Virus record (IMG/VR): IMGVR_UViG_3300015209_000001
Coordinates: 1 to 46,533 of that record
DNA length: 46,533 nucleotides
Direction: 5' to 3' (one strand)
From: a virus
Made by a program: the position numbers and the translations under genes
Shown: positions 7,032 to 43,260 of the stretch, piece after piece
How the letters are laid out: every line of letters begins with the position of its first letter
Position numbering within the stretch: position 1 is the stretch's first letter
The notes under the pieces: model-generated
Seen by the model: only the letters and a program-made list of their open reading frames with translations
Database searches by the model: none
What the model was told of the DNA's origin: nothing

Positions 7032-7061
7032 TTGACTCACCTACCCTAACCGCGCTATGGT
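7032..7061 (+). promoter_or_regulatory. Strong promoter: TTGACT-N18-TATGGT, containing motif copy CTAACCGCGCTATGGT (7046-7061)
   Basis: -35 at 7032-7037 and -10 at 7056-7061. ATG at 7068 follows 6 nt after the -10, which predicts a leaderless mRNA. Confidence 0.65.
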
Positions 7062-7067
7062 GTGTCC

Positions 7068-7445
7068 ATGACCACCACAGACACCACCCGCCCCCGTACC
7101 TCCGCCGAGTGGAGCCGATGGGAGGAGGAGCGCCGGGGCATCATCCGCCCCCCCGAGACCACAGCGGCGGCCGAGGCGGCCAGCGTTGTTGGCGCCCTGC
7201 TCCGCGTTGCCGGCAGCCTGCTCGTGCTGTTCTTCATCGTCTCCGTGGCCTGGGGCTCCCTGCGCCCCGCCTCATCGACCCCCGCGCCCGTCACCCCTGC
7301 CTACGTCGCCGATTGCGACGTCATCAACGCCAGCCTGAACGACGCCGCGCAGGCTGCGGCCGACGCTCCCGACGCCGCGTCAGAGGCCCGAGCGTTCGGC
7401 GATGGCGTGGACGCGGCGGTGCAACAACAGGCCAACGGCTGCTGA
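7068..7445 (+). CDS. single-pass membrane protein (moron-like) inside the tail module
   Basis: Begins MTTTDTT. Hydrophobic helix VVGALLRVAGSLLVLFFIVSVAWG. High GC3. Has its own consensus promoter. Sits where a major tail protein would normally be. Confidence 0.65.
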   Translation: MTTTDTTRPRTSAEWSRWEEERRGIIRPPETTAAAEAASVVGALLRVAGSLLVLFFIVSVAWGSLRPASSTPAPVTPAYVADCDVINASLNDAAQAAADAPDAASEARAFGDGVDAAVQQQANGC

Positions 7446-7463
7446 GGTCTACGCTGGGGAATC

Positions 7464-7826
7464 GTGACCACCCCAAACGGCTCGGCTGTCCGCTCCCGTA
7501 GCTTCGACGCTGAGGTGCCGGAGGAGCCGGGGGTGGAGTTCAGCCTGGCCGGCCAGACGTTCCACTGCCTGCCCCTGTTCCCCGGGGGGGTGATGGCTGA
7601 CCTCATCATCGCCGCCGACAAACCGCTCGGGGTGATCCTCGACGCCGCCGTCGCCCTCATCCGGGGCGTGCTGGTGCCCGAGGACGAGGAGAGGTGGGAC
7701 GCGGCGATCTACGGCAAGGAGCACGTCATCTCTGCTCCTCAGATTGCCGAGATTGCCGAGTGGCTGGTGGAGGTGGGCCTGGGCGCCCCTTTCGGGCAAC
7801 CCAGCGACTCGCCGCGTGGGCCATAG
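7464..7826 (+). CDS. tail assembly chaperone (G-like)
   Basis: GTG start. Lies directly upstream of the tape measure. The 3' end overlaps a -1 frame ORF and contains the slippery heptamer. Confidence 0.65.
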   Translation: MTTPNGSAVRSRSFDAEVPEEPGVEFSLAGQTFHCLPLFPGGVMADLIIAADKPLGVILDAAVALIRGVLVPEDEERWDAAIYGKEHVISAPQIAEIAEWLVEVGLGAPFGQPSDSPRGP

Positions 7827-8080
7827 CCCATGACACCCACCTCAGGGGCCGGGTGCTGCTCGCCGGCCTGGAGCCTCGCTCGCTGGCTCCCGCAGACTGG
7901 ATCGCCGTGGCGCATGTGGTCGTGACAGAGCAGGGCGAACGCGTGGAGGCGATCGACGAGTGGCTGTCGACGCGCTTCCCCTGGAGCCCCGCGCCGGTGG
8001 TTGACCTCCAGGCATGGGCCGAGGACCCCGCCTGGCTCGCCCAGCAGGCGGCGATGATGGCGCAGTTGGGCACACCGTGA
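7464..8080 (+). CDS. tail assembly chaperone frameshift product (GT-like): 7464-7793 joined by a -1 shift to 7793-8080
   Basis: Frame 0 reads ..GAPFGQP. After a -1 slip on CCCTTTC it reads ..PFRATQRLAAW.., which matches ORF 7694-8080 and ends in GTGA with the tape-measure start. Confidence 0.6.
7787..7793 (+). promoter_or_regulatory. -1 programmed frameshift slippery heptamer C CCT TTC
   Basis: X XXY YYZ form in the zero frame (codons cct 7788-7790, ttc 7791-7793), 33 nt before the G-like stop. Confidence 0.55.
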
Positions 8081-10092
8081 CCGTCGTCGGCACCGCCTCC
8101 ATCGAGGTCCACGCTGACACCTCCAGAGTGGGCAGGGAGATTCAGGCCGGCGTCGGGCGTGCCGGGGCCACGGCTGAGAAGTCCCTCGGCCGACAGTTGG
8201 GAGGGGTGGCGGCACGCCTGGGCCTCGCTGCCGCATTCAAGGGAGCGGCCGCCGCCGCCGCCGCGGAGAACATCGCCGTCCGTGCTCTCGACCAGACCCT
8301 TCGCCGTGCCGCGGGGGCCTCCGACGCCACCGTGAAGTCGAGCGAGCGGTACGTCACCTCGCTCCAAAACGCCACCGGCATCGCCGATGACAGCCTGCGC
8401 CCGGCCCTGGCCCGCCTCGTCTCCTCGACCAAAGACGCCGCCGCCGCGCAACGACTCCTCGCCCTGGCCGCGGACGTGTCGGTGGCCCGCTCGATCCCCC
8501 TGGAGGCCGTCGCTACCGCCCTGGGGCGTGCCTACAACGGCAACGTGGCCGGCCTGTCCCGCCTGGGGGTGCAGACCAAGGACGCCGCCGGCAAGACCAA
8601 GAGCTTCCAGGCCATCCTCCAGGACCTTCAGAAGACCTTCGGCGGAGTGGCCGTGGCCTCGGCCGACCCCCTCCAGAAGATCCGGGTGAAGCTCGACGAC
8701 ATCAAGGAGGACATCGGCCGGGCCACCCTGCCGGCGGTAACCACCCTCGGCGGGGCCGTCGCTTCGGTCGGCTCCGCGTTCACCCATCTGCCCGCTGCGG
8801 CGCAGAGCGTGACTGTCATCGGCGGCCTTGCCCTCGCTGCTGCCGGACCCATCTCAAGCCTCATCGGCGGTATCGGGCGTCTCCGCGTTGCCCTGGCCGG
8901 GCTGAGCACGACCTCGGCGCTCGCCTTCGGCATCCCCACTGCCCTCGCGCTCGGTGCGGCAATCAACGACGCCATCCAGGCCAAGTTTTTTCCCAAGCCG
9001 ACAGCCCAGGTCAACGAACTGGTGGAGGCCTACAAGCACCTAGCGGCGTCCGCTACCAACGGAGCGGGCAAGGCCAAGGGGTTCCTCGATGCGCTGACCA
9101 ACTCCAGCGACAAGAACGCCCAGGCGGCGGCGAGCGCCATCGTCGCCATGAACGGGGAGGCCGGTGCACTGGGCGGCCTCGCCGGCGCGACGGGAAGGGC
9201 GACGACCGAGGCAGACAGGCTGTCGCTCGCCCTCGATGCCGTCAAGAAGTCAATCGACGACCAGCTCAACCCGACCCTCGACCTGGCCGACGCACAGAGC
9301 CGCCAAGCGGGCGGAGCAGCCGCGCTCCGTGAAGCCCTGAAGGGCACGGGCGAGGCTTCCAAGGCCGTTCGGGATGCCGGGCGCGACGTGGCCAAGGCCA
9401 ACGACGACGCAGCCAAGGCGCTTCGGGAACACGGGGCGGGCTCAGATGAACTCCGGGCCGCTCAGGACGCCCAGGCTCAGGCCCAGGACCGCCTCAGCGA
9501 TGCCAAGGCACGATCCGCCAAGGACGACCCGAAGTCCGAGGAGAATCGCCGCAAGCAGGGCGACCTCGTGCGCGACCAGATCCGCAACATCGAAGCAGTC
9601 GTGGAGGCTCAGGTCCGGGCCGGCCAGTTGACTCAGAAGGGGGCCAAGCTGGAGTTGACCCGGCAACTGCTGGAGCTGCGCAGCATCGTTCCGACTCTCG
9701 GCCCGCTGTTCGATGAACTCGCTGCCCACATCGCCGCCCTGCCGGACTTCCCCACCTTCGACGCCCTCCTCCAGAGCCGGGAGGGACCGGCCTTCCTAGG
9801 CATCAGCGCCGCACGACGTCGCCGCAACCGTCCCCCGGGGCGCCAGCACGGCGGTCCTGTCCTGCCGGGCTCGGTCTACACCGTGGGCGAGGCTGGCCCG
9901 GAGTTGGCCGTGTTCCCCCGTTCCGGCCAGGTGATCCCCGCGGATGCTTCGGCGCAGCTCCTCGCCGCACTCCAGGGCCAAGGCACCACGAGCAGTACCT
10001 CGCATACCTACAACATCAAGGGGGCGTTCCCCTTTGACCCCGCCGCCCTTGCCCGCGCCCTGCTGCGCGAGCAGGACTGGGCCCTGCGCTGA
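8077..10092 (+). CDS. tape measure protein (671 aa)
   Basis: GTGA overlap with the chaperone. Long Ala/Leu/Gly-rich protein with helical and hydrophobic stretches. C-terminal VYTVGEAGPELAVFP motif is typical of tape measure proteins. Position is canonical. Confidence 0.85.
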   Translation: MTVVGTASIEVHADTSRVGREIQAGVGRAGATAEKSLGRQLGGVAARLGLAAAFKGAAAAAAAENIAVRALDQTLRRAAGASDATVKSSERYVTSLQNATGIADDSLRPALARLVSSTKDAAAAQRLLALAADVSVARSIPLEAVATALGRAYNGNVAGLSRLGVQTKDAAGKTKSFQAILQDLQKTFGGVAVASADPLQKIRVKLDDIKEDIGRATLPAVTTLGGAVASVGSAFTHLPAAAQSVTVIGGLALAAAGPISSLIGGIGRLRVALAGLSTTSALAFGIPTALALGAAINDAIQAKFFPKPTAQVNELVEAYKHLAASATNGAGKAKGFLDALTNSSDKNAQAAASAIVAMNGEAGALGGLAGATGRATTEADRLSLALDAVKKSIDDQLNPTLDLADAQSRQAGGAAALREALKGTGEASKAVRDAGRDVAKANDDAAKALREHGAGSDELRAAQDAQAQAQDRLSDAKARSAKDDPKSEENRRKQGDLVRDQIRNIEAVVEAQVRAGQLTQKGAKLELTRQLLELRSIVPTLGPLFDELAAHIAALPDFPTFDALLQSREGPAFLGISAARRRRNRPPGRQHGGPVLPGSVYTVGEAGPELAVFPRSGQVIPADASAQLLAALQGQGTTSSTSHTYNIKGAFPFDPAALARALLREQDWALR

Positions 10093-13147: not shown

Positions 13148-13261
13148 TGCCCAACGAACCCGTGACGCCGCCGCCACCTCCGACCCCCGACCCCGAGCCG
13201 GTTCCGCCGGAGCAGTCCCCTGTGCCCTGACTCGCCCGTGTCACGGCGTAGCCTGTTGCCC

Positions 13262-13513
13262 ATGGCCAAGCGCAGCGAAACGGACGGACCAGACCAGGCA
13301 GTGACCGAGGAACGGTTCATCACCGAGCCAGTCGGCCCGCCCTCCTCCCAGGAGACCTACGAGCAGCCGGCCAAGGACCAGCGCGGCCGCGACCTCGGCC
13401 CCTTCGAGTCGCCGAACACCCCCGACCCCTCGGAGTCCGTCTTCATCGACACCCGCCAGGTGGAGGGCAGCGAAACGGTGCTCATGCGGGGCGATCAACC
13501 CGACCGCGGCTGA
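13262..13513 (+). CDS. acidic, low-complexity hypothetical protein (83 aa)
   Basis: ATG lies 7 nt after a TAGCCT -10-like box (13249-13254), so it is possibly leaderless. High GC3. Confidence 0.45.
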   Translation: MAKRSETDGPDQAVTEERFITEPVGPPSSQETYEQPAKDQRGRDLGPFESPNTPDPSESVFIDTRQVEGSETVLMRGDQPDRG

Positions 13514-13525
13514 CCCGGTGAAGGC

Positions 13526-17098: not shown

Positions 17099-17625
17099 GC
17101 GCGAGCCAACTTGGCCTTGTCTCCGTATCGGAGGCCTCCGTGATTCCGGATAGCGGCGACCTGTTCGTCAGTGAGCCTCCTCTGGAGATCGCCAAGGAAG
17201 CCCGTCTCGTTCCCTCGCTGTCGACCCTTGGCGAGCTTGTCGGCGATGTTGTCTGCGTTCGTACCGACGAACAGGTGAGCCGGGTTCACGCACGGCGGGT
17301 TGTCACATCGGTGGAGCACGTGCAGCCCGAGCGGCACTGGTTCGCCGGTTGCAACCTCTACAGCAACACGATGCGCACGCACGGGAACGCGAGGACGCTG
17401 CTGAAAAACTCCGTACCCGTCCTTGTCCCGCCCACCGAACCATTCCCAGCACTCGTCGGGCGAGCCTTTGACGAAGTAACGCCGAAAGCGTATGGGCCAT
17501 GGTGCGCGGAACTCAAACGTGATATTGCCGTGAGCCCTGAACCGTTTGTAGTGCTTCGGACACAGACCTCGCGCCCCCTTGTCGCCTACGGGACGGTCGC
17601 AGTCGGGAGCTTCGCACATTCTCAC
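17044..17625 (-). CDS. HNH homing endonuclease with C-terminal HTH
   Basis: GYGVF..AHRVAVE..VLHRCDNPPCVNPAHLFVGTNADNIADKLAKGR. Local GC is visibly lower than the flanks. It is a lone reverse-strand gene. Confidence 0.9.
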   Translation of the reverse strand: MRMCEAPDCDRPVGDKGARGLCPKHYKRFRAHGNITFEFRAPWPIRFRRYFVKGSPDECWEWFGGRDKDGYGVFQQRPRVPVRAHRVAVEVATGEPVPLGLHVLHRCDNPPCVNPAHLFVGTNADNIADKLAKGRQRGNETGFLGDLQRRLTDEQVAAIRNHGGLRYGDKAKLARAYGVSHEHIRRILNGTRR

Positions 17626-18270: not shown

Positions 18271-18561
18271 GTGGCTGCTGTGAGCCTTGACCTCGACGAG
18301 CAGGCCCCCGTCCTGAGCCTGGGGCCAGGGCGGGTGGCGCCGCCGGTGATCCGCACCGGAGTCCAGATCGGCGTCGGCCAGTTCCTCGTGGAGGGCATCG
18401 CGTTGTTCAACCTGGCCCACCTCAACCCCGGCCAGGAGAAGTGGTTGGGCGCTGCGCTGACGCTGGCGGTGTGCGCCATCCAGAACCAGCTGGAGAAGAT
18501 GGCGAACAAGAAGCTGCTGGGGCGCACTCCCGCTCCGCCTGTTCTGCCGCCCGAGGGGTAG
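18271..18561 (+). CDS. hypothetical protein (96 aa)
   Basis: GTG start (alternative at 18280). High GC3. Followed by a hairpin and a promoter motif. Confidence 0.5.
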   Translation: MAAVSLDLDEQAPVLSLGPGRVAPPVIRTGVQIGVGQFLVEGIALFNLAHLNPGQEKWLGAALTLAVCAIQNQLEKMANKKLLGRTPAPPVLPPEG

Positions 18562-18606
18562 TCGCTCGCCTGAGCGATGCACCGCCCGGCCAGTTTCCCC
18601 GAGGAG

Positions 18607-18629
18607 GGGGCCGGCCGAGTGTCGGCCCC
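18607..18629 (+). terminator. GC-rich hairpin (7-bp stem GGGGCCG/CGGCCCC, 9-nt loop), candidate I-shaped terminator
   Basis: Read directly. Lies between the end of 18271-18561 and the promoter motif at 18679. No U-tract. Confidence 0.35.
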
Positions 18630-18678
18630 TGACCACGACTGACCGGGCGGTCCCCGCAGGATAGCCGTCTCGCCCGGC

Positions 18679-18694
18679 CTAAGCGCGCTAGGCT
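18679..18694 (+). promoter_or_regulatory. Motif copy CTAAGCGCGCTAGGCT (-10 TAGGCT)
   Basis: Intergenic, 27 nt upstream of ATG 18722, which has its own GAGGAAAGGA RBS. Confidence 0.55.
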
Positions 18695-19876: not shown

Positions 19877-20077
19877 GTGAGGCTGCTGCTCGTCCGCCGG
19901 CCCAACGGCGCGCTCGCCGCGTGGCCCCTGCCGCCGAGCTCCTCGGTGGCCGAGGTGGTGGAGGCGATCTACGCCGTGGCCCCCTCGCCCGAGTGGCACG
20001 CGCAGACGGAGTGGTGCGTGGTCAAGGCCCCGTCCGCCAGGCTGGCCGAGTGGCCCGAACCCGCGGGCGCACCCTAA
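19877..20077 (+). CDS. hypothetical protein (66 aa)
   Basis: GTGA overlap with a 24-codon upstream ORF. High GC3. Confidence 0.4.
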   Translation: MRLLLVRRPNGALAAWPLPPSSSVAEVVEAIYAVAPSPEWHAQTEWCVVKAPSARLAEWPEPAGAP

Positions 20078-20089
20078 GCGCGCTAGAGT
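20074..20089 (+). promoter_or_regulatory. Motif copy CTAAGCGCGCTAGAGT (-10 TAGAGT)
   Basis: Overlaps the stop of 19877-20077. Lies 35 nt upstream of ATG 20125, which has a GAGGAGGA RBS. Confidence 0.55.
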
Positions 20090-24003: not shown

Positions 24004-25221
24004 ATGCCGCATTCCTCCACGGCTGAGCGCCAGGTGCTCGGCGTGGTGCTGCTCGGCACCCACTACGCCAGCGCGGCGGAGGCGTTGTTCGCCGAGTTGT
24101 CGCCCGAGGACTTCTACGTGCCCTCCCACGCCCGGATCTGGCGGGTAGCGGCCGAGGCGTGGCGGCGGCACTCCACCGGCGACGTGGCCACCATCGTGCG
24201 CACCGGCGAGGACATGGGCGAGGCCATGGACCCCGTGGAGTTGATCGAGATCCTCGCTGCCTCCTCCGGCGTACTGGGCGCCAAGGCATCAGCGACGGTG
24301 GTGGACAGGGCCAGCCGGCGATGGCTGCTCGCGGCCCTGTCCACCGCCATCGACAACGCCGCCGAGCCCTCCGTCGACCTGGGAGCGGTGACCGATGGCC
24401 TGCGAGCGGCCCTGGCGCATGTGGACATCCCCACCCGCACCGCCGTCTGTCCCCCGGATATCCACGACCTGTTGGTGACCAGCGAGCCTGAGTACGACTG
24501 GCTGGTGCCGGGCCTGCTGGAGCGCGGCGACCGGCTCATGGTCACCGCCCGAGAAGGCGCGGGCAAGACGCTGTGGCTGCGACAGCTCGCCGTGCAACTC
24601 GCCGGGGGGTACCACCCGATCAACGCCCGAGAGATCGAGCCGGTCAGGGTCCTGGCCGTCGACCTGGAGAACAGCGCCCGCCAGGCCCGGCGCTGGTACC
24701 GCATCCTCAACCGGGCCATGATCCTGCACGGCCGCATGATCCCCGAGGACACGCTCTACCCCGTCCCCCGCCCGGGAGGCCTTGACCTGCTCGACCGCAG
24801 TGACCTGCGATGGCTGATGGAGCACTGCGCCGCCACAAAGCCGCAGGTGCTCATGATCGGCCCGGTGTACAAGCTGCACTCGGGTGACCCGCACGAGGAG
24901 GCGCCGGCCCGCAAGGTCATCGCCGCCCTCGACCGCATCCGCGACCTCTACGGCTGCGCCATCGTCATGGAGACCCACTCACCGCACGACACCTCGCATC
25001 GCCCGGGCCGCCCCTTCGGAGCCTCGATCTGGATGCGCTGGCCCGAGTTCGGCTTCGCCCTGATCGCCGACAAGTCCAAGCGCAACCGGTTCCGCTTCGT
25101 GGCCTGGCGCGGGCCCCGCGACGAGCGTGGATGGCCGGCGGCCTACGCCAAGGGCGGACAATGGCCCTGGACCCCTGAGCAACGAGACGGGCCCGACACC
25201 GACCACGAGGAGCTGTTCTGA
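24004..25221 (+). CDS. DnaB-like / RepA-type replicative helicase (RecA-fold ATPase)
   Basis: N-terminal AERQVLGVVLLG (DnaB N-domain opening). Walker A VTAREGAGKTLWLRQLAVQLAGG. Walker-B-like VLMIGPVYKL. Confidence 0.8.
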   Translation: MPHSSTAERQVLGVVLLGTHYASAAEALFAELSPEDFYVPSHARIWRVAAEAWRRHSTGDVATIVRTGEDMGEAMDPVELIEILAASSGVLGAKASATVVDRASRRWLLAALSTAIDNAAEPSVDLGAVTDGLRAALAHVDIPTRTAVCPPDIHDLLVTSEPEYDWLVPGLLERGDRLMVTAREGAGKTLWLRQLAVQLAGGYHPINAREIEPVRVLAVDLENSARQARRWYRILNRAMILHGRMIPEDTLYPVPRPGGLDLLDRSDLRWLMEHCAATKPQVLMIGPVYKLHSGDPHEEAPARKVIAALDRIRDLYGCAIVMETHSPHDTSHRPGRPFGASIWMRWPEFGFALIADKSKRNRFRFVAWRGPRDERGWPAAYAKGGQWPWTPEQRDGPDTDHEELF

Positions 25222-25592
25222 TGAAGCGCACCCGCATCAAGCGCCTCTCCCCTGACGAGGTGAAGAGCGTGGCATGGATCATCCGCTCTACCGAGGTCAT
25301 GGTCCGCGCCCGGTGGTACTGCGAGTTGGCGACCCCGCGATGTGCCACCGGCCGCCACGACGCCGAGCACGTCCATCACCGCAAGCTGCGCTCCCAGGGC
25401 GGCAGCGACGAATCGGTGAATCTTCTGGCCGTCTGCTTCAACGGGCACCGCTACGTGCATGACCACCCGGCCGAGTCCTACGCCCGGGGTTGGCTTCTGC
25501 GCTCATGGGAGGCCGAGACGCCCTATTCCCCATCCCCGCCCGTAGCGGGCCTCCAGGACGACCCCCGGGGGCGGAGAAGCGATCCTGCGTGA
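25221..25592 (+). CDS. HNH endonuclease (small)
   Basis: CELATPRC..AEHVHHRKLRSQGGSDESVNLLAVCFNGHRYVHDHP. Confidence 0.8.
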   Translation: MKRTRIKRLSPDEVKSVAWIIRSTEVMVRARWYCELATPRCATGRHDAEHVHHRKLRSQGGSDESVNLLAVCFNGHRYVHDHPAESYARGWLLRSWEAETPYSPSPPVAGLQDDPRGRRSDPA

Positions 25593-25906
25593 TCGAGCCG
25601 AGCCACGTCGAGCTACAGGAGCAGGTGGTGGAGTTGGCCCACCTGTACCACTGGCATCACCTCCACGTGCGCCGTACGGTCGGTCGCGGCAAGATGTGGA
25701 CAACCTCCACCAACCTCAAAGGTTGGCCCGACCTGCTTTTCTGGAAGGCGGACAAGGGCTTCGTCGGAGTGGAAATTAAGGTGGGCCGGGACAAACCAAC
25801 CCCCGAGCAGGTGGCCGTCCTCGCCTCCCTGGCTGCGGCCGGCGCCCGGACGATGGTCTGCCGCCCTGAGGATTTTGACACGCTCGCAGCCATGCTCCGG
25901 GCCTAA
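25589..25906 (+). CDS. VRR-NUC domain nuclease
   Basis: GTGA overlap. ELQEQVVELA..KGWPDLLFWK..GFVGVEIKVGRDKPTPEQ fits the PD-(D/E)xK VRR-NUC layout. Confidence 0.7.
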   Translation: MIEPSHVELQEQVVELAHLYHWHHLHVRRTVGRGKMWTTSTNLKGWPDLLFWKADKGFVGVEIKVGRDKPTPEQVAVLASLAAAGARTMVCRPEDFDTLAAMLRA

Positions 25907-25918
25907 CTGCGCTAGCGT
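25903..25918 (+). promoter_or_regulatory. Motif copy CTAACTGCGCTAGCGT (-10 TAGCGT)
   Basis: Overlaps the stop of the VRR-NUC gene and lies upstream of 26010-26231. Confidence 0.5.
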
Positions 25919-26009
25919 ATGGGCCTACCCCGACCGAAAGCAGGCGTTACGTGACGGACCTGGCAACAGCGTGAGCATCGTTCCCCTCTCTGGCTTCGAC
26001 GGGGACCGG

Positions 26010-26231
26010 ATGAGCGCACTCCGAGACGTGCGGTCGGTGGATGAAATCGCTCAGAAGATCCTCGCTGACCACCACCAGCGGGTCACCTTGGCCGATGTCC
26101 TCGCCGCCTTCGACCACGAGGCGACCCACGCTGAGTGGGACAATGCTGCTCGCCTCGGCATCGCCGAGCAGCTCCGCGAGGCCCTTCGTGCCAACGCCGA
26201 GCAGATCATCGCTGGGGTGCAGGCAGGATGA
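26010..26231 (+). CDS. hypothetical protein (73 aa; alternative GTG start 25971)
   Basis: In-frame part of ORF 25875-26231, downstream of the promoter motif. Confidence 0.45.
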   Translation: MSALRDVRSVDEIAQKILADHHQRVTLADVLAAFDHEATHAEWDNAARLGIAEQLREALRANAEQIIAGVQAG

Positions 26232-26530
26232 CCGACAACCACCACGACGACAACCACCACGACGAACGCCGCCGGGTCCTCGCCGCCCTGCGCTCCACCC
26301 GCGTACGCCTCGCCAGCCTCCACCGCAAGGAAGCGGCCATCTACGCCGAGCGCCTGGCGCTGTACAAGACGGGCCGGGCGGTCAAGCTGAGCCAGCGGGA
26401 GATGGGCGATGCCGCGGGGATCAGCGAGCCAGCCATCATTCAGGCCCTGAGGAAAGATCGACTGGAGCGCGAGGCCCAGGCGAGCGGCGGGGTGGAGCTG
26501 GGGCCAGCCCGACTTGACTCTCTGACCTAA
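26228..26530 (+). CDS. HTH DNA-binding protein (sigma region-4-like HTH), His/Asp-rich N-terminus
   Basis: ATGA overlap. KLSQREMGDAAGISEPAIIQALRK helix-turn-helix. N-terminal DNHHDDNHHDE. Confidence 0.55.
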   Translation: MTDNHHDDNHHDERRRVLAALRSTRVRLASLHRKEAAIYAERLALYKTGRAVKLSQREMGDAAGISEPAIIQALRKDRLEREAQASGGVELGPARLDSLT

Positions 26531-26542
26531 CCGCGCTATGGT
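26514..26542 (+). promoter_or_regulatory. Strong promoter TTGACT-N17-TATGGT containing motif copy CTAACCGCGCTATGGT (26527-26542)
   Basis: -35 at 26514-26519 and -10 at 26537-26542. ATG 26549 follows 6 nt after the -10 (leaderless). 26526-26559 is identical to 7045-7078. Confidence 0.65.
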
Positions 26543-26548
26543 GTGTCC

Positions 26549-26974
26549 ATGACCACCACCACAGAGAAGACCTACGCAACGATCGCCCCTAACGACGTCT
26601 CCCGCTCCATCGCAGCCGAGGCGCGTGCTGTAGAGGAGGGCCACAGAGCCTTCGTCCAGCCCGGAGGCCGCATCCGCATCGTCTCCGACACCATCCCGGA
26701 CCGCCACTACCACGTCGCCTACGTCGGCCGAGGGGGCCTCGTGGAGTTCTGCTGCGACCACCCCATCGTCGCCGGCTGGAGCGATCAGCCCTGCATGACG
26801 CGGCCCGGGTTGACGAACTGCAAACACTCGGCCTTGGCGGCGCGCCGCCTGGAGCGCGAGGGCCTCGCCCGCTGGGACAACGGCTGGTACCTCACCGAGC
26901 GCGCCGAGCACCTGGCCGCTGAGGTCCCCCGCCCCTGCGCTCCTCCCGCCCCTGCCAGCCAGTTCGTCGACTGA
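26549..26974 (+). CDS. SWIM-zinc-finger-like protein
   Basis: Begins MTTTT. FCCDHP...C....LTNCKHSALAARRLEREG fits a CxC..CxH SWIM-type finger. Confidence 0.5.
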   Translation: MTTTTEKTYATIAPNDVSRSIAAEARAVEEGHRAFVQPGGRIRIVSDTIPDRHYHVAYVGRGGLVEFCCDHPIVAGWSDQPCMTRPGLTNCKHSALAARRLEREGLARWDNGWYLTERAEHLAAEVPRPCAPPAPASQFVD

Positions 26975-27710: not shown

Positions 27711-27913
27711 CCCAGGGAAAGGTGTGGTGGAAGTACGCCGTGCTGCGAGGCAAATGGCTACCTGTCGGGCTAGACGGCCGGTGGTACGAGTTGTCGGACC
27801 TCTCGCCGGAGCTTGGAAACGTCCCAAACGCTGTTTCATTCGGCCCCACCCACGAGTGGGAGCAGCGTGAAGACGGCGAAGTGGCGGTCGTTTACCGTCT
27901 GGAGACGCCGTGA
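27707..27913 (+). CDS. hypothetical protein (68 aa)
   Basis: GTGA overlap. Confidence 0.45.
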   Translation: MTQGKVWWKYAVLRGKWLPVGLDGRWYELSDLSPELGNVPNAVSFGPTHEWEQREDGEVAVVYRLETP

Positions 27914-28245
27914 CACCCGAGGAGCGCCAGGACGCAGCGTGCCGGACCTCCACGGTCAACTTCTTCCCCGAACCAGTCGACCACGCGGGCATCGCCGCCG
28001 CCGTGGCTGTCTGCGGCTCCTGCCCGGTCCTCTCGTCCTGCGCCACCCAAGGCGAGAAGGAGACGGCCGGTGTGTGGGGCGGCATCTACCGAGGCCGCAA
28101 GGTCCACCGTCCACGCCGGTACTGCGCCTGGTGCGGGTCGGTCCATCGCACGCCGTGGGTCTACTGCTCGCCCGCCTGTCGCTCCCGAGCCAACGCCGAA
28201 AACGCCCTCAACCGCTACCGGACCCGTCATCAGGTGGACGCATGA
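27910..28245 (+). CDS. whiB: WhiB-family Fe-S transcription factor
   Basis: GTGA overlap. C..(n)..FFP....A.AVCGSCPVLSSC....ETAGVWGG is the WhiB four-Cys signature plus the G[VI]WGG turn. Confidence 0.85.
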   Translation: MTPEERQDAACRTSTVNFFPEPVDHAGIAAAVAVCGSCPVLSSCATQGEKETAGVWGGIYRGRKVHRPRRYCAWCGSVHRTPWVYCSPACRSRANAENALNRYRTRHQVDA

Positions 28246-28497: not shown

Positions 28498-28513
28498 CTA
28501 ACCGCGCTATGCT
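28498..28513 (+). promoter_or_regulatory. Motif copy CTAACCGCGCTATGCT (-10 TATGCT)
   Basis: Intergenic, 20 nt upstream of ATG 28534, which has a GAAGGAG RBS. Confidence 0.55.
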
Positions 28514-29209: not shown

Positions 29210-29451
29210 TGCCTAATCCCTACCGACGTGGCGGGTTCTATTGCTCGGGCTGTGGGGCGTGTTTTACCACGGCCGGATGGGGTGTCATCACCTGCCAAAA
29301 ATGCGGACAACTCGGCTTGCGCCAGTTCACGAAGATGCCACGGTCGGTTACCTGCCCGAAGGCTGAGTGCGACTGGCGCGGGTGGGATGACGGCGGCGTC
29401 AACGACGACCTCGGACGGCACCTGCGACGCGAGCACAAGGCGCCGGCATGA
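29209..29451 (+). CDS. zinc-ribbon protein (80 aa)
   Basis: GTG shares one base with the upstream TAG. CSGCG..CQKCG..CPKAEC. Confidence 0.5.
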   Translation: MPNPYRRGGFYCSGCGACFTTAGWGVITCQKCGQLGLRQFTKMPRSVTCPKAECDWRGWDDGGVNDDLGRHLRREHKAPA

Positions 29452-29660
29452 ATCTCCGCCGCCCGCCGCCGCCACGACGCACCCTCGGTGTCTGGCTGCG
29501 CCATTCCCGCCCGCTGCGGTGGTCGTGGAGGAACTGGCGCCAGGGCTACCAGTTTCGGCCCATCAGTCGGTGTCGTCGTTGCGACCACACAAGCCCATTC
29601 CACTACTCGACATGTGTGTTGCTGGTGGACCAACCAAAGGAGAACCATGAACACATCTGA
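29448..29660 (+). CDS. Arg-rich hypothetical protein (70 aa), weakly supported
   Basis: ATGA overlap. By hand count, GC3 is higher than in the two competing frames. GC falls towards the 3' end. Confidence 0.3.
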   Translation: MNLRRPPPPRRTLGVWLRHSRPLRWSWRNWRQGYQFRPISRCRRCDHTSPFHYSTCVLLVDQPKENHEHI

Positions 29661-29706
29661 GGCATTGAAGCTCGTGGCCTGTCGCAGATGGGGCTAGACT
29701 TTAGGT

Positions 29707-30021
29707 ATGACCCAAGCATGGATTCCGAACCCGATCCGGAGGGAAGTGTCGATCAAGTCAGGGGGTCGATGCTTCCATTGCCAGAAGGTAGCGACCTCCG
29801 TCAAGGTGGACCGTTGGTCCATTCCTCGGTTCGCAGATGAAGAGGGCGTTCCCTTCGAGGTAGACCACCTTCTCCCTCGGAGCCAAGGCGGCACCACCGA
29901 CGCCGGCAACCTCGTCGTGGCCTGCCGTTCGTGCAATAGGAGCCGCAAGCGGACAACAGCTAGCGACCAGGACGCCGTGAGACAACTTGTCGAGAACATC
30001 AACGGGTCGAGGTCGGGGTGA
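29707..30021 (+). CDS. HNH endonuclease
   Basis: CFHCQK..FEVDHLLPRSQGGTTDAGNLVVACRSCNRSR. ATG lies 6 nt after a TAGACT box (29695-29700). The upstream region is lower in GC. Confidence 0.85.
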   Translation: MTQAWIPNPIRREVSIKSGGRCFHCQKVATSVKVDRWSIPRFADEEGVPFEVDHLLPRSQGGTTDAGNLVVACRSCNRSRKRTTASDQDAVRQLVENINGSRSG

Positions 30022-30491
30022 CGCGCTACGTGGCCTTCTTCGCTGCCGCCGTGCTCATCTCCTGCACGCCCCCAACCACCCAATCCACCGCCCCACCGAC
30101 TACAACCTCTACGACCACTTCTACACAGGTCCCCACCAAGACGATTCCCGCCGACTCGTCTGGTGGGATGGCTGCCGTTCCTGCCGTCGAGCCCCCCCAG
30201 GCTCCGGTGGGGGCGGTGGCCGACTCGCACGTACTCGAAAGAATTGAGAGTGGCGACGTGCTGGCACGAATAGCACGGTGCGAGGGGTATCCCCGCTTCG
30301 TCAACGCCAGCCATCCGGGGCGCTCGTCGGCGTCGGGCAAGTACGGCGCACTCGACGGCACCTGGGGCGGCTACGGCGGCTACAGGCAGGCCAAGGACGC
30401 TCCCGAGGCCGTGCAGGACGCTTGGGCGGCTGAGTTGTACGCCAAGGCCGGGACGCGGCCATGGGCGGCGTCTAGGGGGTGCTGGGGATGA
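30018..30491 (+). CDS. secreted lipoprotein with an Rpf/transglycosylase-like domain
   Basis: GTGA overlap. Lipobox AAVLISC. Thr/Pro linker. ARCEGYP..SGKYGALDGTWGGYGG..AVQDAWAAELYAKAGTRPWAASRGCW resembles the transglycosylase-like (Rpf) domain. Confidence 0.6.
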   Translation: MTRYVAFFAAAVLISCTPPTTQSTAPPTTTSTTTSTQVPTKTIPADSSGGMAAVPAVEPPQAPVGAVADSHVLERIESGDVLARIARCEGYPRFVNASHPGRSSASGKYGALDGTWGGYGGYRQAKDAPEAVQDAWAAELYAKAGTRPWAASRGCWG

Positions 30492-30883
30492 TCGAGCGCA
30501 ACGGCTACCTCATGCGTTACGTAGGTCCTCGGCGCGGGCCGGGTTCTCCGTACAAATACGTGCATCGACTCGTCATGGCCGAACACCTGGGCCGACCACT
30601 GCTGGCGAGCGAAATAGTCCATCACATCAACCACGACAAGCACGACAATCGCCTGGAGAACCTGGAAATAACGACGGCTGCCGAACACGCTCGGCAGCAC
30701 ATCGCAGATGGAACCGCCGGCATCGGCAAAATCGGCCCCCGTCATGATCTGAGGATGCCGAAGGTGCCATGCCCTATCTGCGGCGCAATGTTCACGCCGT
30801 ACCAGCACCGGCCGGGCCAACGTCAGGCAGCGTGCTCGTTCTCCTGTTCCAACAAGCTGCGGCCGCGTGGAGTGGCCGTATGA
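30488..30883 (+). CDS. HNH homing endonuclease (HNH_3-type) with a C-terminal zinc ribbon
   Basis: ATGA overlap. [52 protein letters not shown]. Confidence 0.85.
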   Translation: MIERNGYLMRYVGPRRGPGSPYKYVHRLVMAEHLGRPLLASEIVHHINHDKHDNRLENLEITTAAEHARQHIADGTAGIGKIGPRHDLRMPKVPCPICGAMFTPYQHRPGQRQAACSFSCSNKLRPRGVAV

Positions 30884-31718: not shown

Positions 31719-32825
31719 GGGGGCGGGGCTAATACAGGCCAACGCAATCGCTCTGCCATTGGCAGACGCGAGCGTGGACTTGATAATCACCTCGCCCCCG
31801 TGAGGCCTTACTTCGCCCTTCGCTCCTACCGCGACGCTGGCGAGCACTACGACGCTCAGATCGGTAGCGAGCCAACGCCACAAGCGTTTCTGGAGGCCCT
31901 GTGGTCCGTCCTGAGCGAGTGCTGGCGCGTGCTGAAGCCGACCGGCTCATGCTGGGTCAATCTCGGGGACAAGCGCAGCGGGAGCGGCGGGCACAACAAC
32001 GCCGGCATCTCGTCCAAGTCCACCCTGAGCGGCAATGGACACGTCGGCGGCGTGGGCAAGGCGGGCCCGACGAAGATCAAGGCCACGCTTCGCAACGCCC
32101 CCGACCGCTACAACCAGGCCGCCTTCGGTCGCACCAAGTCGAAGATGCTGCTCCCGCACCGCTTCGCCATCGGGTGCGAGGACGGGTTGGCCGACCCCGA
32201 GGGCATCGGGTGGATCGTGCGGCAGGACGTGGTGTGGAGCAAGAGAAATTCGCTTCCAGAATCAGTGACCGACCGGACCCGGGATAGTCACGAGTTTTGG
32301 TTTCATCTGACCAAGCAGGGGCGGTACTTCTCGGCGGTGGACGAAATCCGCCAGCCATCGGTGCCTCAGAACGGCCTAGCCGGCACGTTCAAGCGGCCCA
32401 AGCCCAGCCACGACCTTGTGCCGGGGCAGGCTGCTACCCAGCAGCGAGCAGAGCGCAACGGGGACGACGCCTACCACCCGAAGGGCGCCCTCCCTGGCTC
32501 AGTCTGGACCGTCGCCTCCGAGCCCCTACGCATCCCCGACGCGGTGAAGGCGCACTACGACCTGCCCGACCACTTCGCCGCCTTCCCGCAGGAACTTCCA
32601 CGGCGCATCATCCTCGGCTGGTCGCCGTCTGGCATCTGTGTGGAGTGTGGTGAGGGCCGACGTCCGGTGGTGATCCGAGAGTTCCACGGTGAGTTCAACG
32701 AGCAGGAAGCAGGAAGGCAACGTGAACGAGGCGTGGTGAGCGGGGCCGTCGACAAGGTGACGCTCGGCAGGACGGACGACGTGGAACGCACTATCACCGG
32801 CTACGCCTGCGCCTGCCCCCCGTGC

Positions 32826-33341
32826 GGGGATTGTTCTAGGACGCTAAGATTGTCCTATGACAAAACCGTGTCTCCAGTGCGGGTCACAGATAACCCTCGA
32901 CCACCTAAAAGTGAAGTGGGAGTCGGATCGTCTACGGGCGCTCAAGAAGGCTCGGTTTTGCTGCAAGGCATGTTCGAGTCGCTGGAACGCGGCACACCGG
33001 GCGTCAACGACGTATCGCCGGCTGACGACTCGCGGATACGTGGAACTGTGGAAGCCGAGTCACCCGATGGCGAACAAGGGCGGGTACATCATGGAGCACC
33101 GCTACTTGATGGCGGAGCACCTAGGGCGGCTCCTGACCTCGGCCGAGGTCGTGCATCACAGGAACGAGATCAAGACGGACAACCGGCTAGAAAACCTCGA
33201 AGTCCTGCAAAAGAAGGACCACGACCGCCGGCCGAAGCCGCTGCCGAAGCCGTTTCAGTGCCCTCACTGTCAGGGCTGGTTACAGACGTTCGGGAGCCAC
33301 AGCCGTGTCCGCACTGTCGTCCCGCTCCCACCAGAGCCAGT
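32826..33341 (+). mobile_element. Insertion carrying an HNH homing endonuclease inside the methyltransferase gene (free-standing or intron-borne)
   Basis: A lower-GC junction (gattgttctaggacgctaagattgtcctatgac) follows the methyltransferase sequence GYACACPP. Native methyltransferase sequence resumes near ..[18 protein letters not shown]. Boundaries are approximate. Confidence 0.5.
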
Positions 33342-33345
33342 GTGA
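32857..33345 (+). CDS. HNH homing endonuclease (HNH_3-type) with an N-terminal zinc ribbon
   Basis: [63 protein letters not shown]. Paralog of 30488-30883. Its frame differs from the methyltransferase frame. Confidence 0.85.
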
Positions 33346-33573
33346 TTCTTGATCCCTTTTCTGGAACCGGCACCGTCCCCGGAGTCGCCCGCCAGCTCGG
33401 CCGATTCGGCGTCGGCATCGACCTGAGCTTCGACTACCTGCGCCTGGCCCGTTGGTTTTTGGATGACGGCCGTAGGTTCTCAAAAACCAGCACGAGAACC
33501 GACCGGGAGCGCCAGGGCGTGCTCCTGTGACCCTGCCCGCCGCCGCCTGCGCCGCACCGCGTAACACGGCCTC

Positions 33574-33589
33574 CTAAGCCCACTACCCT
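33574..33589 (+). promoter_or_regulatory. Degenerate motif copy CTAAGCCCACTACCCT (-10 TACCCT)
   Basis: Intergenic. GTG 33597 of the small terminase follows 7 nt after the -10 (leaderless arrangement). Confidence 0.45.
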
Positions 33590-33596
33590 GTCCTGC

Positions 33597-34172
33597 GTGG
33601 CCCGCCCCCGAGGACAACCCAGCGTCATCGACTCCATCGTCGGCCACACCGCCCAAGGCGTGCCTATCACCGCCGCTGAGCGCATCCTCGACGCCATGCG
33701 AGCCGGCAACTACCTGGAGACCGCAGCCCATTCCTGCAAGATCACCAAGCAGAGCATCTTCGAGTGGCTCGGCGTCGGAGCCCAGGCCCATGCGATGCTC
33801 CATAGGGGCGAGAAGCTCACGGCCCATCAGAAACGTTGTAAGGATTTCTCTGACTCTGTAATGGAAGCAATGGGCATCGCCGAGGCCACTGACGTCGCTC
33901 GACTGGCCCAGCTGGCCCGTGGAGGACAGGAGATAACCACCACCACCACGAGGACTTTGACGGACGGAACCACCGAGACGACCGTGCGTAAGGAGTGGAC
34001 CCAGCCCGACGCCAAGGTGCTGATGTGGCGCCTGGAGCGACGGTTCGGGGACCGCTGGGGACGCCAGCGCATCGAGATCGGCCCCGTCACCCCCACGGAG
34101 CTCGCCGGCATCGAGGACGTCAAGCGCCTCCGCGACGAGTTGGCCCAGCGCCGGGGCATCACCGCGGGGTGA
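33597..34172 (+). CDS. terS: terminase small subunit
   Basis: HTH-like ILDAMRAGNYLETAAHSCKITKQSIFEWL. C-terminal VLMWRLERRFGDRWGR motif typical of small terminases. Lies directly upstream of the large terminase. Confidence 0.65.
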   Translation: MARPRGQPSVIDSIVGHTAQGVPITAAERILDAMRAGNYLETAAHSCKITKQSIFEWLGVGAQAHAMLHRGEKLTAHQKRCKDFSDSVMEAMGIAEATDVARLAQLARGGQEITTTTTRTLTDGTTETTVRKEWTQPDAKVLMWRLERRFGDRWGRQRIEIGPVTPTELAGIEDVKRLRDELAQRRGITAG

Positions 34173-35766: not shown

Positions 35767-35782
35767 CTAACTGCGCTAGGGT
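35767..35782 (+). promoter_or_regulatory. Motif copy CTAACTGCGCTAGGGT (-10 TAGGGT)
   Basis: Intergenic. ATG 35790 follows 7 nt after the -10 (leaderless). Confidence 0.55.
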
Positions 35783-35789
35783 AACGCCC

Positions 35790-36104
35790 ATGACCACCCA
35801 CTTCTACGGCGATCGCTGCTTGGAGCCCCACGGGACCTGCACCCATGAGTCGGCGTCAGGCGTCGATCAGACGGAGGGCCCGGCCAAGGTGTGGTGCTGC
35901 GACGGCTGCGGTTGGCTGCACCGCTACGAGGTCAGAGATGGGATCAGCCGGGCCGTGAACGTCACGGTGCTGTCCCGGCGCCTCCTTCCATCCGACGCCG
36001 ACAACGAGGCCAGGGCGCTGCTGCCGCACCTCTTCCCCGACCGCACGTGGTCGGCGAGGATCACCGCCGAGGGGTTGGTGGAGTGGATGATCGAGGATGA
36101 GTAA
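35790..36104 (+). CDS. hypothetical protein (104 aa) with a CCDGCG motif
   Basis: Begins MTTH. High GC3. Confidence 0.5.
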   Translation: MTTHFYGDRCLEPHGTCTHESASGVDQTEGPAKVWCCDGCGWLHRYEVRDGISRAVNVTVLSRRLLPSDADNEARALLPHLFPDRTWSARITAEGLVEWMIEDE

Positions 36105-37636: not shown

Positions 37637-37665
37637 GCCTCCCGGCCCGCAACGGCGCGGGAGGC
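37637..37665 (-). promoter_or_regulatory. 8-bp GC hairpin (GCCTCCCG-N13-CGGGAGGC) in the leader of the reverse cassette
   Basis: Read directly. Lies between palindromic GCTAGC-centred -10-like boxes (TAGCCT on +, TAGCGT on -, about 37679-37689) and the RBS of 37606. Confidence 0.3.
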
Positions 37666-37816
37666 ATCTTTCGTCTACACGCTAGCCTTCGCCTCCGGCG
37701 GGAGGTCGCTGTGCGATGCTCCTCGGCTCCGTGCTCCAGTTCCGCTGGACGGCCTCCTGCCCCACTTGTGACACCCCCCCGTAGGATGACAAGGTGACCG
37801 CTGCGGCTGCGCGCTG

Positions 37817-39436: not shown

Positions 39437-39437
39437 G

Positions 39438-40360: not shown

Positions 40361-40405
40361 GACGGCACACCCTACCTGCGCCGTGTCACGCGTACGATTC
40401 CGCGC

Positions 40406-42063: not shown

Positions 42064-42303
42064 CCGAGCGGGGCGAACCTCGGTGGTGCTCACCGTGAGG
42101 CCCCACCCGCAGGGCAGGCAGAACACCGAGTGCGTCTCCGTCGTCGCTCCGTACCCGCCGTGTCGGAACAGCGCCGGCTGGTCCATCGTCACCTCGTGCA
42201 GCGCACCGCCGCACATCGGGCACGCGCTGCGGTCGATGGGCACCAGTGCCCGGCTCCCTGCCCAGCGGACCTTGGGGGCCACGTCGATGAGGCGAGCGGG
42301 CAT
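42049..42303 (-). CDS. zinc-ribbon protein (84 aa), last gene of the reverse-strand island
   Basis: CPMCGG..CLPCGWG. Very high GC3. ATG lies 6 nt after a minus-strand motif copy. Confidence 0.6.
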   Translation of the reverse strand: MPARLIDVAPKVRWAGSRALVPIDRSACPMCGGALHEVTMDQPALFRHGGYGATTETHSVFCLPCGWGLTVSTTEVRPARLPVG

Positions 42304-42309
42304 GGACGG

Positions 42310-42325
42310 AAGGTAGGGCGGTTAG
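42310..42325 (-). promoter_or_regulatory. Minus-strand motif copy CTAACCGCCCTACCTT (-10 TACCTT)
   Basis: Reverse complement of aaggtagggcggttag. ATG 42303 follows after 6 nt (leaderless). Confidence 0.5.
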
Positions 42326-42331
42326 TTGCCC

Positions 42332-42622
42332 TCATCGGCCGTGGTGTACGGCCGTCCACAAAGACTGGATGGCTTCGCCCGCTGTCGGAGCGTGCCTGTT
42401 GATCCCGTTGGGGAACCCGTCGTAGATGTTGAACGGCGGGTTGCTCTCCTCAGGCAGGGCCAGAAGCCCGCTTGCCAGCCCTTGTCCCGATGCGCCGTCG
42501 CGGTCGAGCAGTGCGGCCCCGGCCATCCATCCGCCATCGGGCCACGGCCAAACGGCTACGACCACGGCATAGTCGGGCAGCCCAACCATGCGTTCCACGA
42601 GAGCCCAATCCGGGGGGGTCAT
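42332..42622 (-). CDS. hypothetical protein (96 aa)
   Basis: ATG 42622 overlaps the upstream stop (TGATG). Product MTPPDWALVERMVGLPDYAVV...ESNPPFNIYDGFPNG. Replaces the 154-aa ORF-track model (see rejected list). Confidence 0.55.
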   Translation of the reverse strand: MTPPDWALVERMVGLPDYAVVVAVWPWPDGGWMAGAALLDRDGASGQGLASGLLALPEESNPPFNIYDGFPNGINRHAPTAGEAIQSLWTAVHHGR

Positions 42623-42948
42623 CACTCGTTCGACCACTCGGTCGACAGGAACCGGATGGGCCCACGCTGTGCCGTAAACGTCGGCAGGTCCATCCTCGGA
42701 GCGCAGCCCTCGTGGAACCACACCCCGTCGCCCATGGCGAACGGGTTCAGCCACCCGGGCGTGACCCAAGGCGGTTTCCGGAGCGGCAGGTGGCATCCCG
42801 ATAGCTGCGGTGGGACCCGACGACGCTTGCCAGCGAACCGCCCTGAGCTGTGCACGACCGCCACCGTCGGCGGCCCGCCGCAGAGCGCGGCCGGATCGGG
42901 CTCGGAGAACTTAGTGATCGGAAAGCAGAGACCCCGACTGACGGTCAC
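42622..42948 (-). CDS. hypothetical protein (108 aa)
   Basis: GTG 42948 overlaps the upstream stop (GTGA). By hand count, about 50 of 57 codons end in G/C in this frame versus 34 of 58 in the competing frame across 42622-42796. Confidence 0.5.
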   Translation of the reverse strand: MTVSRGLCFPITKFSEPDPAALCGGPPTVAVVHSSGRFAGKRRRVPPQLSGCHLPLRKPPWVTPGWLNPFAMGDGVWFHEGCAPRMDLPTFTAQRGPIRFLSTEWSNE

Positions 42949-43097
42949 GTCCGACCTTGGGTGGGATGCCGGTCGCCGCACGCGACGTAGTCGAGCTGGC
43001 CGTCCCAATGCTGGCCGTAGTCGGGCCAGATCAGGCTCTCAGGCCAGGCACTCAGGCCAGGCGGTAGCACGGTAGCCCCCACGATCCTGGCGTTCAC
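42945..43097 (-). CDS. hypothetical protein (50 aa)
   Basis: GTGA overlaps at both ends. GC3 is high by hand count. Contains DNA direct repeats. Confidence 0.35.
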   Translation of the reverse strand: MNARIVGATVLPPGLSAWPESLIWPDYGQHWDGQLDYVACGDRHPTQGRT

Positions 43098-43105
43098 GAT
43101 CCTGG
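43038..43105. repeat. Short direct repeats: CTCAGGCCAGGC x2 (43038-43049, 43051-43062; 13-nt period) and CACGATCCTGG x2 (43080-43090, 43095-43105; 15-nt period)
   Basis: Read directly on the + strand. The 13-nt period is not a multiple of three, so this is a DNA-level rather than a protein-level repeat. Confidence 0.7.
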
Positions 43106-43225
43106 GTATCTCGCCATCGCCCGACCATGCGACCGGCTCGGGCCGACCCAGCGGACCTTGCCGTCGCTGCGAGTGGTGCGCACGAAGAAAGTGGGCTTGC
43201 GGGTGGTGGTCTGTGTCGTCGTCAT
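43094..43225 (-). CDS. hypothetical protein (43 aa), leaderless first gene of the reverse operon
   Basis: ATG 43225 lies 6 nt after a minus-strand TAGGGT -10. Product MTTTQTTTRKPTFFVRTTRSDGKVRW... GC3 is very high for the first ~32 codons. Confidence 0.4.
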   Translation of the reverse strand: MTTTQTTTRKPTFFVRTTRSDGKVRWVGPSRSHGRAMARYPGS

Positions 43226-43231
43226 GACCCC

Positions 43232-43260
43232 ACCCTAACCGCGCTATGATCAGGAGTCAA
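43232..43260 (-). promoter_or_regulatory. Minus-strand promoter TTGACT-N17-TAGGGT driving the reverse operon
   Basis: -35 is the complement of 43255-43260 and -10 is the complement of 43232-43237. Then 6 nt to ATG 43225. Confidence 0.6.
43235..43250 (+). promoter_or_regulatory. Motif copy CTAACCGCGCTATGAT (-10 TATGAT) facing the capsid genes, overlapping the minus-strand promoter
   Basis: Same 16-nt motif as the other copies. The next + strand gene starts at 43492. Confidence 0.5.

Follow-up and report, generated by a model that had tools for sequence, protein, structure and literature searches.

A very probable promoter family with a conserved block joined to the -10 box in the genome of an uncultivated actinophage

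Phage genomes often carry repeated promoters served by the host polymerase; what is unusual in the genome described here is a 10-bp block joined to the -10 box. The genome, IMG/VR record IMGVR_UViG_3300015209_000001, was analysed over its whole length of 46,533 nt (hereafter the window), and its source is an uncultivated phage of a high-GC actinobacterium, obtained from a metagenome. The window holds exactly ten copies of a 16-17 nt motif, cCTAAsyGCGC-TAnnnT, eight of which are exact and two degenerate. This motif family is real and statistically unambiguous, and the sequence and placement of the ten copies indicate that they are very probably promoters. The explanation we favour as a whole, i.e., a promoter family with a -10 box read by the host and an upstream block contacted by a phage protein, is one that we hold with moderate confidence.

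All eight plus-strand copies are exact matches to CTAASYGCGCTANNNT, an expression with 0 matches in 100 dinucleotide-preserving shuffles, and each had been placed correctly by an original prediction made from this DNA. The same prediction had listed two degenerate copies, at 33574 on the plus strand and 42310-42325 on the minus strand, and these were recovered with one to two mismatches and by a weight matrix; the search with two mismatches additionally returned a minus-strand hit at 8054-8069. A 17-nt weight-matrix scan was bimodal, with the ten sites scoring 18.7-27.9 bits and the next best 13.0 bits. The hit at 8054-8069, which lies inside the tape-measure gene, was rejected as chance because its 13.0 bits fall within the range of the null (30 Markov shuffles, maximum 16.8 bits). 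A comparison of motif density with coding and with shuffled sequence found no copies in either. Two unbiased procedures led to the same family: clustering of the 10 nt before every TAnnnT returned exactly the same ten sites, the top 7-mers enriched in non-coding sequence all derive from the motif, and neither procedure gave a family stronger than this one.

The copies had been described as lying between genes or at gene ends, upstream of a gene on the same strand, and this is true of all ten. The non-coding share is at least 75% at every one of the sites (location p about 4e-13), and the orientation is that of the downstream gene in 10/10 copies (about 1e-3). At some sites the TAA of the motif doubles as the stop codon of the gene before it: TAA 20075-20077 in the copy at 20074 ends the open reading frame (ORF) 19877-20077, TAA 25904-25906 in the copy at 25903 ends the resolvase/endonuclease-like gene 25589-25906, and TAA 26528-26530 in the copy at 26527 ends ORF 26228-26530. 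It had also been claimed that the 3' hexamer always fits TAnnnT and that conservation continues for 10 nt upstream, and this too applies to all ten copies, with the information confined to positions 0-16 of the motif and the flanks showing no similarity. Nine positions are invariant in 10/10 copies (C1, T2, A3, A4, C8, C10, T11, A12 and T16), the most variable are 13-15, the nnn of the -10 box, and the spacing between block and hexamer is identical throughout. The predicted perfect palindrome, the 8-bp AGCGCGCT, was found in two of the ten copies, at 18679 and 20074.

Within the hexamer the T at -12, the A at -11 and the final T at -7 alone are invariant in all ten copies, and this pattern of fixed and free positions points to a -10 box of the sigma-70 family, as expected for sigma region 2. 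A start codon follows 6-7 nt past the hexamer, a leaderless geometry, in five copies (7068, 26549, 33597, 35790 and, on the minus strand, 42303), and at three further copies a ribosome-binding site is followed by an ATG 20-35 nt downstream. Genome-wide, the arrangement TAnnnT-N5-8-[AG]TG opening an ORF of at least 35 amino acids occurs in 14 cases, all of them at gene boundaries. The -35 box TTGACT stands 17-18 nt upstream of the two best-scoring copies (7032 and 26514); the other eight have no -35 signal, and aligning the sites on the motif reveals no information at -35. Counted on both strands, the word TAnnnT occurs 69 times where 182 +/- 17 would be expected (2.6-fold depleted), and 32 of the 69 (46%) lie within the non-coding 5.7% of the genome. 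Depleted overall yet concentrated in non-coding sequence, the word appears to have been purged from genes and kept at gene starts.

These features agree with actinobacterial start-site maps: in Streptomyces clavuligerus, TANNNT is present at 91% of starts and a -35 box at 60%, with spacers of 18-19 nt, and about 23% of mRNAs are leaderless, 98% of those with TANNNT directly upstream (PMC6614810). The likeness extends to the SigA/HrdB leaderless promoters mapped in Streptomyces and mycobacteria, with their TAnnnT, optional TTGAC at 17-19 nt, start 6-7 nt downstream at the start codon and depletion of TAnnnT elsewhere. However, SigA/HrdB host promoters have no conserved sequence between -13 and -23, whereas the ten in the window share an 11-bp block and eight of them are without a -35 box. 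The leaderless geometry also corrects start-codon calls, e.g., to ATG 7068 and ATG 26549 in place of upstream GTGs. The copy at 18679 is the only one to follow a strong hairpin (within 18555-18678; z = -2.57), likely a terminator; the others would be internal promoters within a long run of co-directional genes. Terminator-plus-promoter punctuation was not seen more widely, as significant folding was detected in only one of eight upstream regions and a consensus terminator scan stayed at background.

The same evidence bears on stoperator-like sites, i.e., asymmetric sites bound by a monomeric phage repressor that blocks initiation and elongation, as known from Cluster A mycobacteriophages and Streptomyces phage R4. 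The copies in the window, some ten of them, are asymmetric, follow the direction of transcription and are scattered over short gaps between genes, which are features that define stoperators (PMC9283540); the stoperator motif, of about 13 bp, is likewise asymmetric, with many intergenic, transcription-oriented sites (PMC9283540, PMC10276819), and eight or more sites have been reported in R4-like phages (PMC10276819). Nevertheless, the stoperators of Cluster A and R4 belong to temperate phages, in which they serve an immunity repressor and are mostly not promoters themselves, whereas every copy here is fused in fixed register to its own TAnnnT, and Pfam and PHROGs scans of nearly all ORFs found no integrase and no CI-type or other immunity-repressor-like gene. 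With a start codon at the predicted +1 in five of the ten, the copies look like promoters themselves and not like roadblocks inside operons, and a stoperator role is improbable.

Promoters of other kinds are present in the genome. About nine further promoter-like sites, judged by geometry, carry no block, including the HNH gene starts at 17625 (minus strand), 29707 and 32857 as well as 7464, 13262, 18060, 40406 and 43225 (minus strand). Their presence implies that the block is the mark of a sub-class and that the polymerase of this host does not require it. The block precedes early genes (the Gam-like, Erf-like and MerR-like genes and two of unknown function) and late genes (the putative small terminase gene terS, the gene after the large terminase gene terL, the capsid gene and the tail module). 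The proposal that the motif switches the whole genome programme at once therefore found no support, given that genes of both phases are served and that the promoter-like sites just listed do without it.

No close relative was found by megablast among the 50,697 phage records of INPHARED. Relatives found through the large terminase, TerL, are 41-61% identical and comprise 80 viral and 15 genome loci with about 1.2 Mb of DNA, in which neither the motif nor its core occurs. The sole locus with two weight-matrix hits, L264 (47% GC), holds no true copy. When 2.9 million viral contigs were scanned for the motif, the single-copy hits numbered 59 and 58, as expected by chance, and no contig held several copies; a metagenome 14-mer scan gave scattered single matches among the matches listed, and about 50 high-GC relatives contain no comparable family fused to a -10 box. 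Together with the geometry and the selection on TAnnnT, the absence from the 95 TerL-related loci and from any multi-copy viral contig upholds the idea of a phage-specific promoter class.

A capsid search identified one genome-level relative, contig JALYDQ010000035.1, whose capsid is 67% identical and whose virion module is 58-74% identical, and whose TerL is not among the best 120 matches of the TerL protein search. This contig has two intact promoters with CTAACC in the spacer (TTGACC-N17-TAAGGT-N6-ATG and TTGACT-N17-TACAAT-N6-ATG), which correspond allele for allele to the two full promoters of the window (TTGACyCACCTAsCCTAACC and TTGACTCTCTgACCTAACC) at non-syntenic places. Their GCGC part differs (CTGC, GGGGT), the spacing from CTAACC to the hexamer is shifted by one base, and the counterpart of 7046 at the syntenic position has decayed, having lost 10 nt and acquired a G for the A at -11. 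The expectation that the motif would be conserved in relatives was thus borne out for the CTAACC half, which the promoters of the close relative keep, and not for GCGC or for the 7046-syntenic position. More distant capsid relatives (37-44% identity) have no promoters of the CTAACC type, a DnaB search found a 69% relative on a 4-kb contig of 61% GC from which the motif is absent, and searches of viral contigs with the capsid protein gave nothing usable. So the 5' half of the block predates this genome, to which the complete block and its presence at ten sites are private.

Two promoter alleles held in common at non-syntenic positions, and a 34-nt identity between 7045-7078 and 26526-26559, could also mean that the copies reflect descent or mobility and not function, as recent duplications, gene conversion of one promoter cassette, or linkers of module exchange. 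In the other eight copies, however, similarity ends exactly at the motif edges. The 25 differences from the consensus fall mostly at positions 5, 6 and 13-15 while nine positions never vary, which argues for selection and not for drift after duplication, and makes conservation by descent or mobility alone very improbable.

We propose that the motif is the core of the phage's main promoter family. TAnnnT would be the -10 box read by the host primary sigma factor (SigA/HrdB type) in RNA polymerase, with transcription starting 6-7 nt downstream of the hexamer; in five of the ten copies the first letter of the start codon (A or G) falls exactly there, so that their mRNA would be leaderless. The block cCTAAsyGCGC (about -23 to -13), lineage-specific and in fixed register with the -10 box, would be a protein contact, at which a small phage-encoded DNA-binding protein, or a polymerase carrying such a protein, would most likely stabilise or gate polymerase binding at all ten sites. 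The result would be coordinated control of the phage's own genes as distinct from its mobile HNH genes. A protein contact is suggested because the block is conserved position by position over a full helical turn and is sharply bounded, and also because it is dispensable elsewhere in the genome, lineage-specific, and found where the -35 box is missing. That a dedicated factor reads the block is a tentative step, which we place slightly short of probable.

Alternatively, the host holoenzyme alone might read the block through contacts of sigma region 3, the beta-prime zipper, RbpA or CarD, in which case it would act as an unusually long extended -10 element that makes up for the missing -35 box, giving strong constitutive promoters with no phage regulator. 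The invariant spacing between block and hexamer in 10/10 copies is consistent with such reading, as are the service of early and late genes alike, the lack of any dedicated regulator linked to the motif, and a G at -14 in eight of the ten copies, which is shared with extended -10 (TGn) promoters; several block-less promoters also read cgc-TAnnnT. The -14 position is the extended -10 position in actinobacterial promoters. TGn promoters, however, have a T at -15, where the 10-bp block of the window has an invariant C, and ten conserved base pairs exceed the spacer contacts of sigma A known to us. Moreover, the block is perfect even in the two copies that do have a consensus TTGACT and is thus not a mere substitute for a -35 box, other promoters of the window, judged by geometry, work without it, and the relative's promoters vary GCGC and shift the spacing by one base. 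Direct reading by the host holoenzyme is the main rival to a phage factor, and we consider it rather unlikely.

As to which phage protein might read the block, three candidates had been named, and for two the identity was confirmed. The WhiB-like protein (27910-28245) has four Cys, GVWGG and the basic tract RGRKVHRPRR, and the product of 28534 is a helix-turn-helix protein of MerR type (PF13411, E = 1.3e-7) encoded directly under one motif copy. The third, ORF 26228, had been thought to resemble sigma region 4 and is not supported: its best Pfam match is HTH_37 (E = 0.089), there was no relevant PDB sequence hit, and its structure model (predicted local distance difference test, pLDDT, 75) shows no sigma fold, with a best Foldseek E of 2.5. 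Viral contigs yielded no relatives of either the WhiB-like or the MerR-like protein. A classical MerR operator, dyad-symmetric with a 19-20-bp spacer, does not fit an asymmetric motif with a palindrome in only two of ten copies, spacers of 17-18 bp where a -35 box exists and eight copies without one. A likeness of CTAACC to half of an IdeR/DtxR iron box was considered and rejected, as it extends over just 6-7 nt and lacks the dyad partner. As a separate observation, the WhiB-like protein has, after the GVWGG turn, an extra C-terminal CxxC…CxxxC module that is unusual for the Wbl family, and from its sequence this module may, with the basic tract, be a DNA-binding addition.

The Wbl family binds region 4 of sigma A (PMC13013590), and by analogy the block could be the docking site of an actinophage sigma-appropriation system, in which a WhiB-like protein sits on sigma A region 4 and a -35 box is not needed. 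The WhiB-like protein or a partner, e.g., the MerR-like protein, would then read cCTAAsyGCGC and redirect host polymerase to the ten promoters, a scheme that we consider doubtful at best. Still less probable, indeed extremely so, is that the motif serves an RNA polymerase or an alternative sigma factor of the phage's own, comparable to T7 promoters or T4 late promoters. A long invariant motif near the start site and repeated genome-wide is what such an enzyme would have, but the Pfam and PHROGs scans found no sigma factor or RNA polymerase gene, ORF 26228 is not sigma-like, conservation ends at -7 without crossing +1, and the hexamer fits the host consensus and recurs in the same type at block-less promoters. 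Large ORFs without an assigned function sit in the virion module or match tail proteins.

Several points weigh against the proposed promoter family with a phage-protein contact. Every transcription start has been inferred from sequence, the phage being uncultivated; fixed register and the G at -14 would equally fit direct reading by the host holoenzyme; and no candidate reader is tied to the motif. Because early and late genes are both served, the block marks no temporal class and offers no temporal switch. The copy at 43235 has a long leader (241 nt) and overlaps an opposing promoter, and the comparison with JALYDQ010000035.1, the one genome-level relative, covers 17.6 kb.

Among phage systems, a close likeness is to Cluster O mycobacteriophages, which have eight to ten predicted SigA-like promoters per genome, several of them predicted to be leaderless, with divergent pairs and some inside the virion operon; unlike those of the window, their promoters are defined by -35 and -10 hexamers, and their repeated 17-bp palindrome is separate, not oriented and not fused to the -10 box (PMC4351075). 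The Streptomyces class TGTC-N12-TANNNT likewise has an element other than the -35 box at a fixed distance, differing from the block in sequence and spacing (PMC6614810). T4 middle promoters, governed by MotA and AsiA, also keep the host -10 box, replace the -35 box by a phage-specific one and occur in many copies, which is a functional analogy only; no AsiA or MotA homologue was seen in the window. The T4 MotA box is centred near -30 and does not abut the -10 box, in which it differs from the block. We know of no described promoter class of Actinobacteria or their phages in which a 10-bp, orientation-fixed block abuts the -10 box in ten promoters.

If a phage protein reads the block, a 16-bp promoter and one factor would make a compact, portable control module for high-GC hosts, and would give a handle on how actinophages direct host polymerase. 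Direct reading by host polymerase would make the block a spacer element of a new kind for SigA-type holoenzymes. In both cases the ten sites provide a transcription map for an uncultivated phage, half of whose units would be leaderless.

The genome in which this family sits has a G+C content of 68%, with nearly all genes on the plus strand and a coding fraction of about 94%, leaving about 6% non-coding (Table 1). Bases 1-99 are repeated exactly at 46435-46533, and the circular junction is bridged by an independent Logan assembly (ERR4837089); the exact 99-nt end repeat and the bridging assembly indicate that the window is a circularly assembled (or circularly permuted) genome of 46,434 bp. The presence of a WhiB-like gene points to an actinobacterial host (PMC13013590). 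A tRNA scan and an Rfam scan of the window found no tRNAs and no Rfam families.

Table 1. Predicted promoter sites and principal genes of the window; promoter and leaderless assignments are predictions from sequence
Feature	Position	Strand	Details
Full promoter	7032..7070	+	TTGACT 7032-7037; 18-nt spacer with CTAACCGCGC (7046-7055); TATGGT 7056-7061; 6 nt; ATG 7068
Gene at 7068	7068	+	125 amino acids; leaderless start; head of tail module
Motif CTAAGCGCGC-TAGGCT	18679..18694	+	upstream of Gam-like ATG 18722 with ribosome-binding site GGAAAGGA
Motif CTAAGCGCGC-TAGAGT	20074..20089	+	upstream of Erf-like ATG 20125, with ribosome-binding site
Motif CTAACTGCGC-TAGCGT	25903..25918	+	next gene 25971-26231, function unknown
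Full promoter	26514..26551	+	TTGACT 26514-26519; 17-nt spacer with CTAACCGCGC; TATGGT 26537-26542; 6 nt; ATG 26549
Gene at 26549	26549	+	141 amino acids; leaderless start
Motif CTAACCGCGC-TATGCT	28498..28513	+	directly upstream of MerR-like ATG 28534; ribosome-binding site GAAGGAG
Degenerate motif CTAAGCCCAC-TACCCT	33574..33599	+	18.7 bits; 7 nt; GTG 33597; leaderless putative small terminase, then large terminase
Motif CTAACTGCGC-TAGGGT	35767..35792	+	just after terL; 7 nt; ATG 35790; leaderless; 104 amino acids
Degenerate motif CTAACCGCCC-TACCTT	42301..42325	-	20.5 bits; 6 nt; ATG 42303; leaderless 84-amino-acid cysteine-rich protein
Motif CTAACCGCGC-TATGAT	43235..43250	+	241 nt upstream of major capsid GTG 43492; divergent control region
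Divergent promoter without block	43223..43260	-	TTGACT 43260-43255; N17; TAGGGT 43237-43232; 6 nt; ATG 43225
Head-tail adaptor	5006		
Tape measure	8077		
Dit-like	10092		
Peptidase	16251		
Mu Gam-like	ATG 18722	+	phrog_2205
Erf-like annealing protein	ATG 20125	+	phrog_155
Replication initiator	22645		
DnaB-like helicase	23992		
Resolvase/endonuclease-like gene	25589-25906	+	
Lower-GC stretch	29.2-33.5 kb		several HNH genes and N6/N4 methyltransferase
Putative small terminase (terS)	GTG 33597	+	assigned by position directly before terL
Large terminase (terL)	34169	+	
Portal	37817		
MuF-like	39602		
Major capsid	GTG 43492	+	phrog_777

The copy upstream of the major capsid gene lies back to back with the divergent promoter without a block, which leads into a 43-amino-acid ORF and a minus-strand operon running from 43225 to 42049. 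As the -10 box of this minus-strand promoter overlaps the CTAA of the plus-strand copy at 43235, the two promoters should exclude each other, and the pair may form a small switch. The 34-nt repeat at 7045-7078 and 26526-26559 is perfect and runs from the motif through the 6-nt discriminator into the first four codons (ATG ACC ACC AC) of two genes that are otherwise unrelated; Met-Thr-Thr opens several leaderless genes, here and in the relative.

A second word, GTGWCAC (GTGTCAC/GTGACAC), stands 3-7 nt before TAnnnT at 13238-13254, 40383-40398 and 37768-37787, i.e., before three late genes (those starting at 13262 and 40406, and the portal gene), and may be the mark of a separate late promoter class; all three sites are among those without the block. 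In one TerL relative, the contig L093 from a Caldilineales metagenome-assembled genome, four tandem copies of GyGGGTTGTC-TAGACT occur at 237-455 with a period of about 74 nt; this looks like a local repeat array unrelated to the motif of the window.

At least five genes for HNH-type endonucleases are present in the 46-kb genome (17044-17625 on the minus strand, 25221-25592, 29707-30021, 30479-30883 and 32857-33345), concentrated in the 29-34 kb stretch of 61-66% G+C, and three of them (17625 on the minus strand, 29707 and 32857) have private leaderless promoters without the motif. At the start of this lower-GC region, 497 nt (29210-29706) have no convincing gene call and no Rfam match. The Pfam match to an N6/N4 DNA methyltransferase consists of two stretches of one 576-codon ORF (31800-33530). 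A different frame within this ORF contains the HNH endonuclease ORF 32857-33345, which has a leaderless promoter of its own, TAAGAT-N6-ATG; the methyltransferase gene may be split here by the insertion of a homing endonuclease or an intron-like element.

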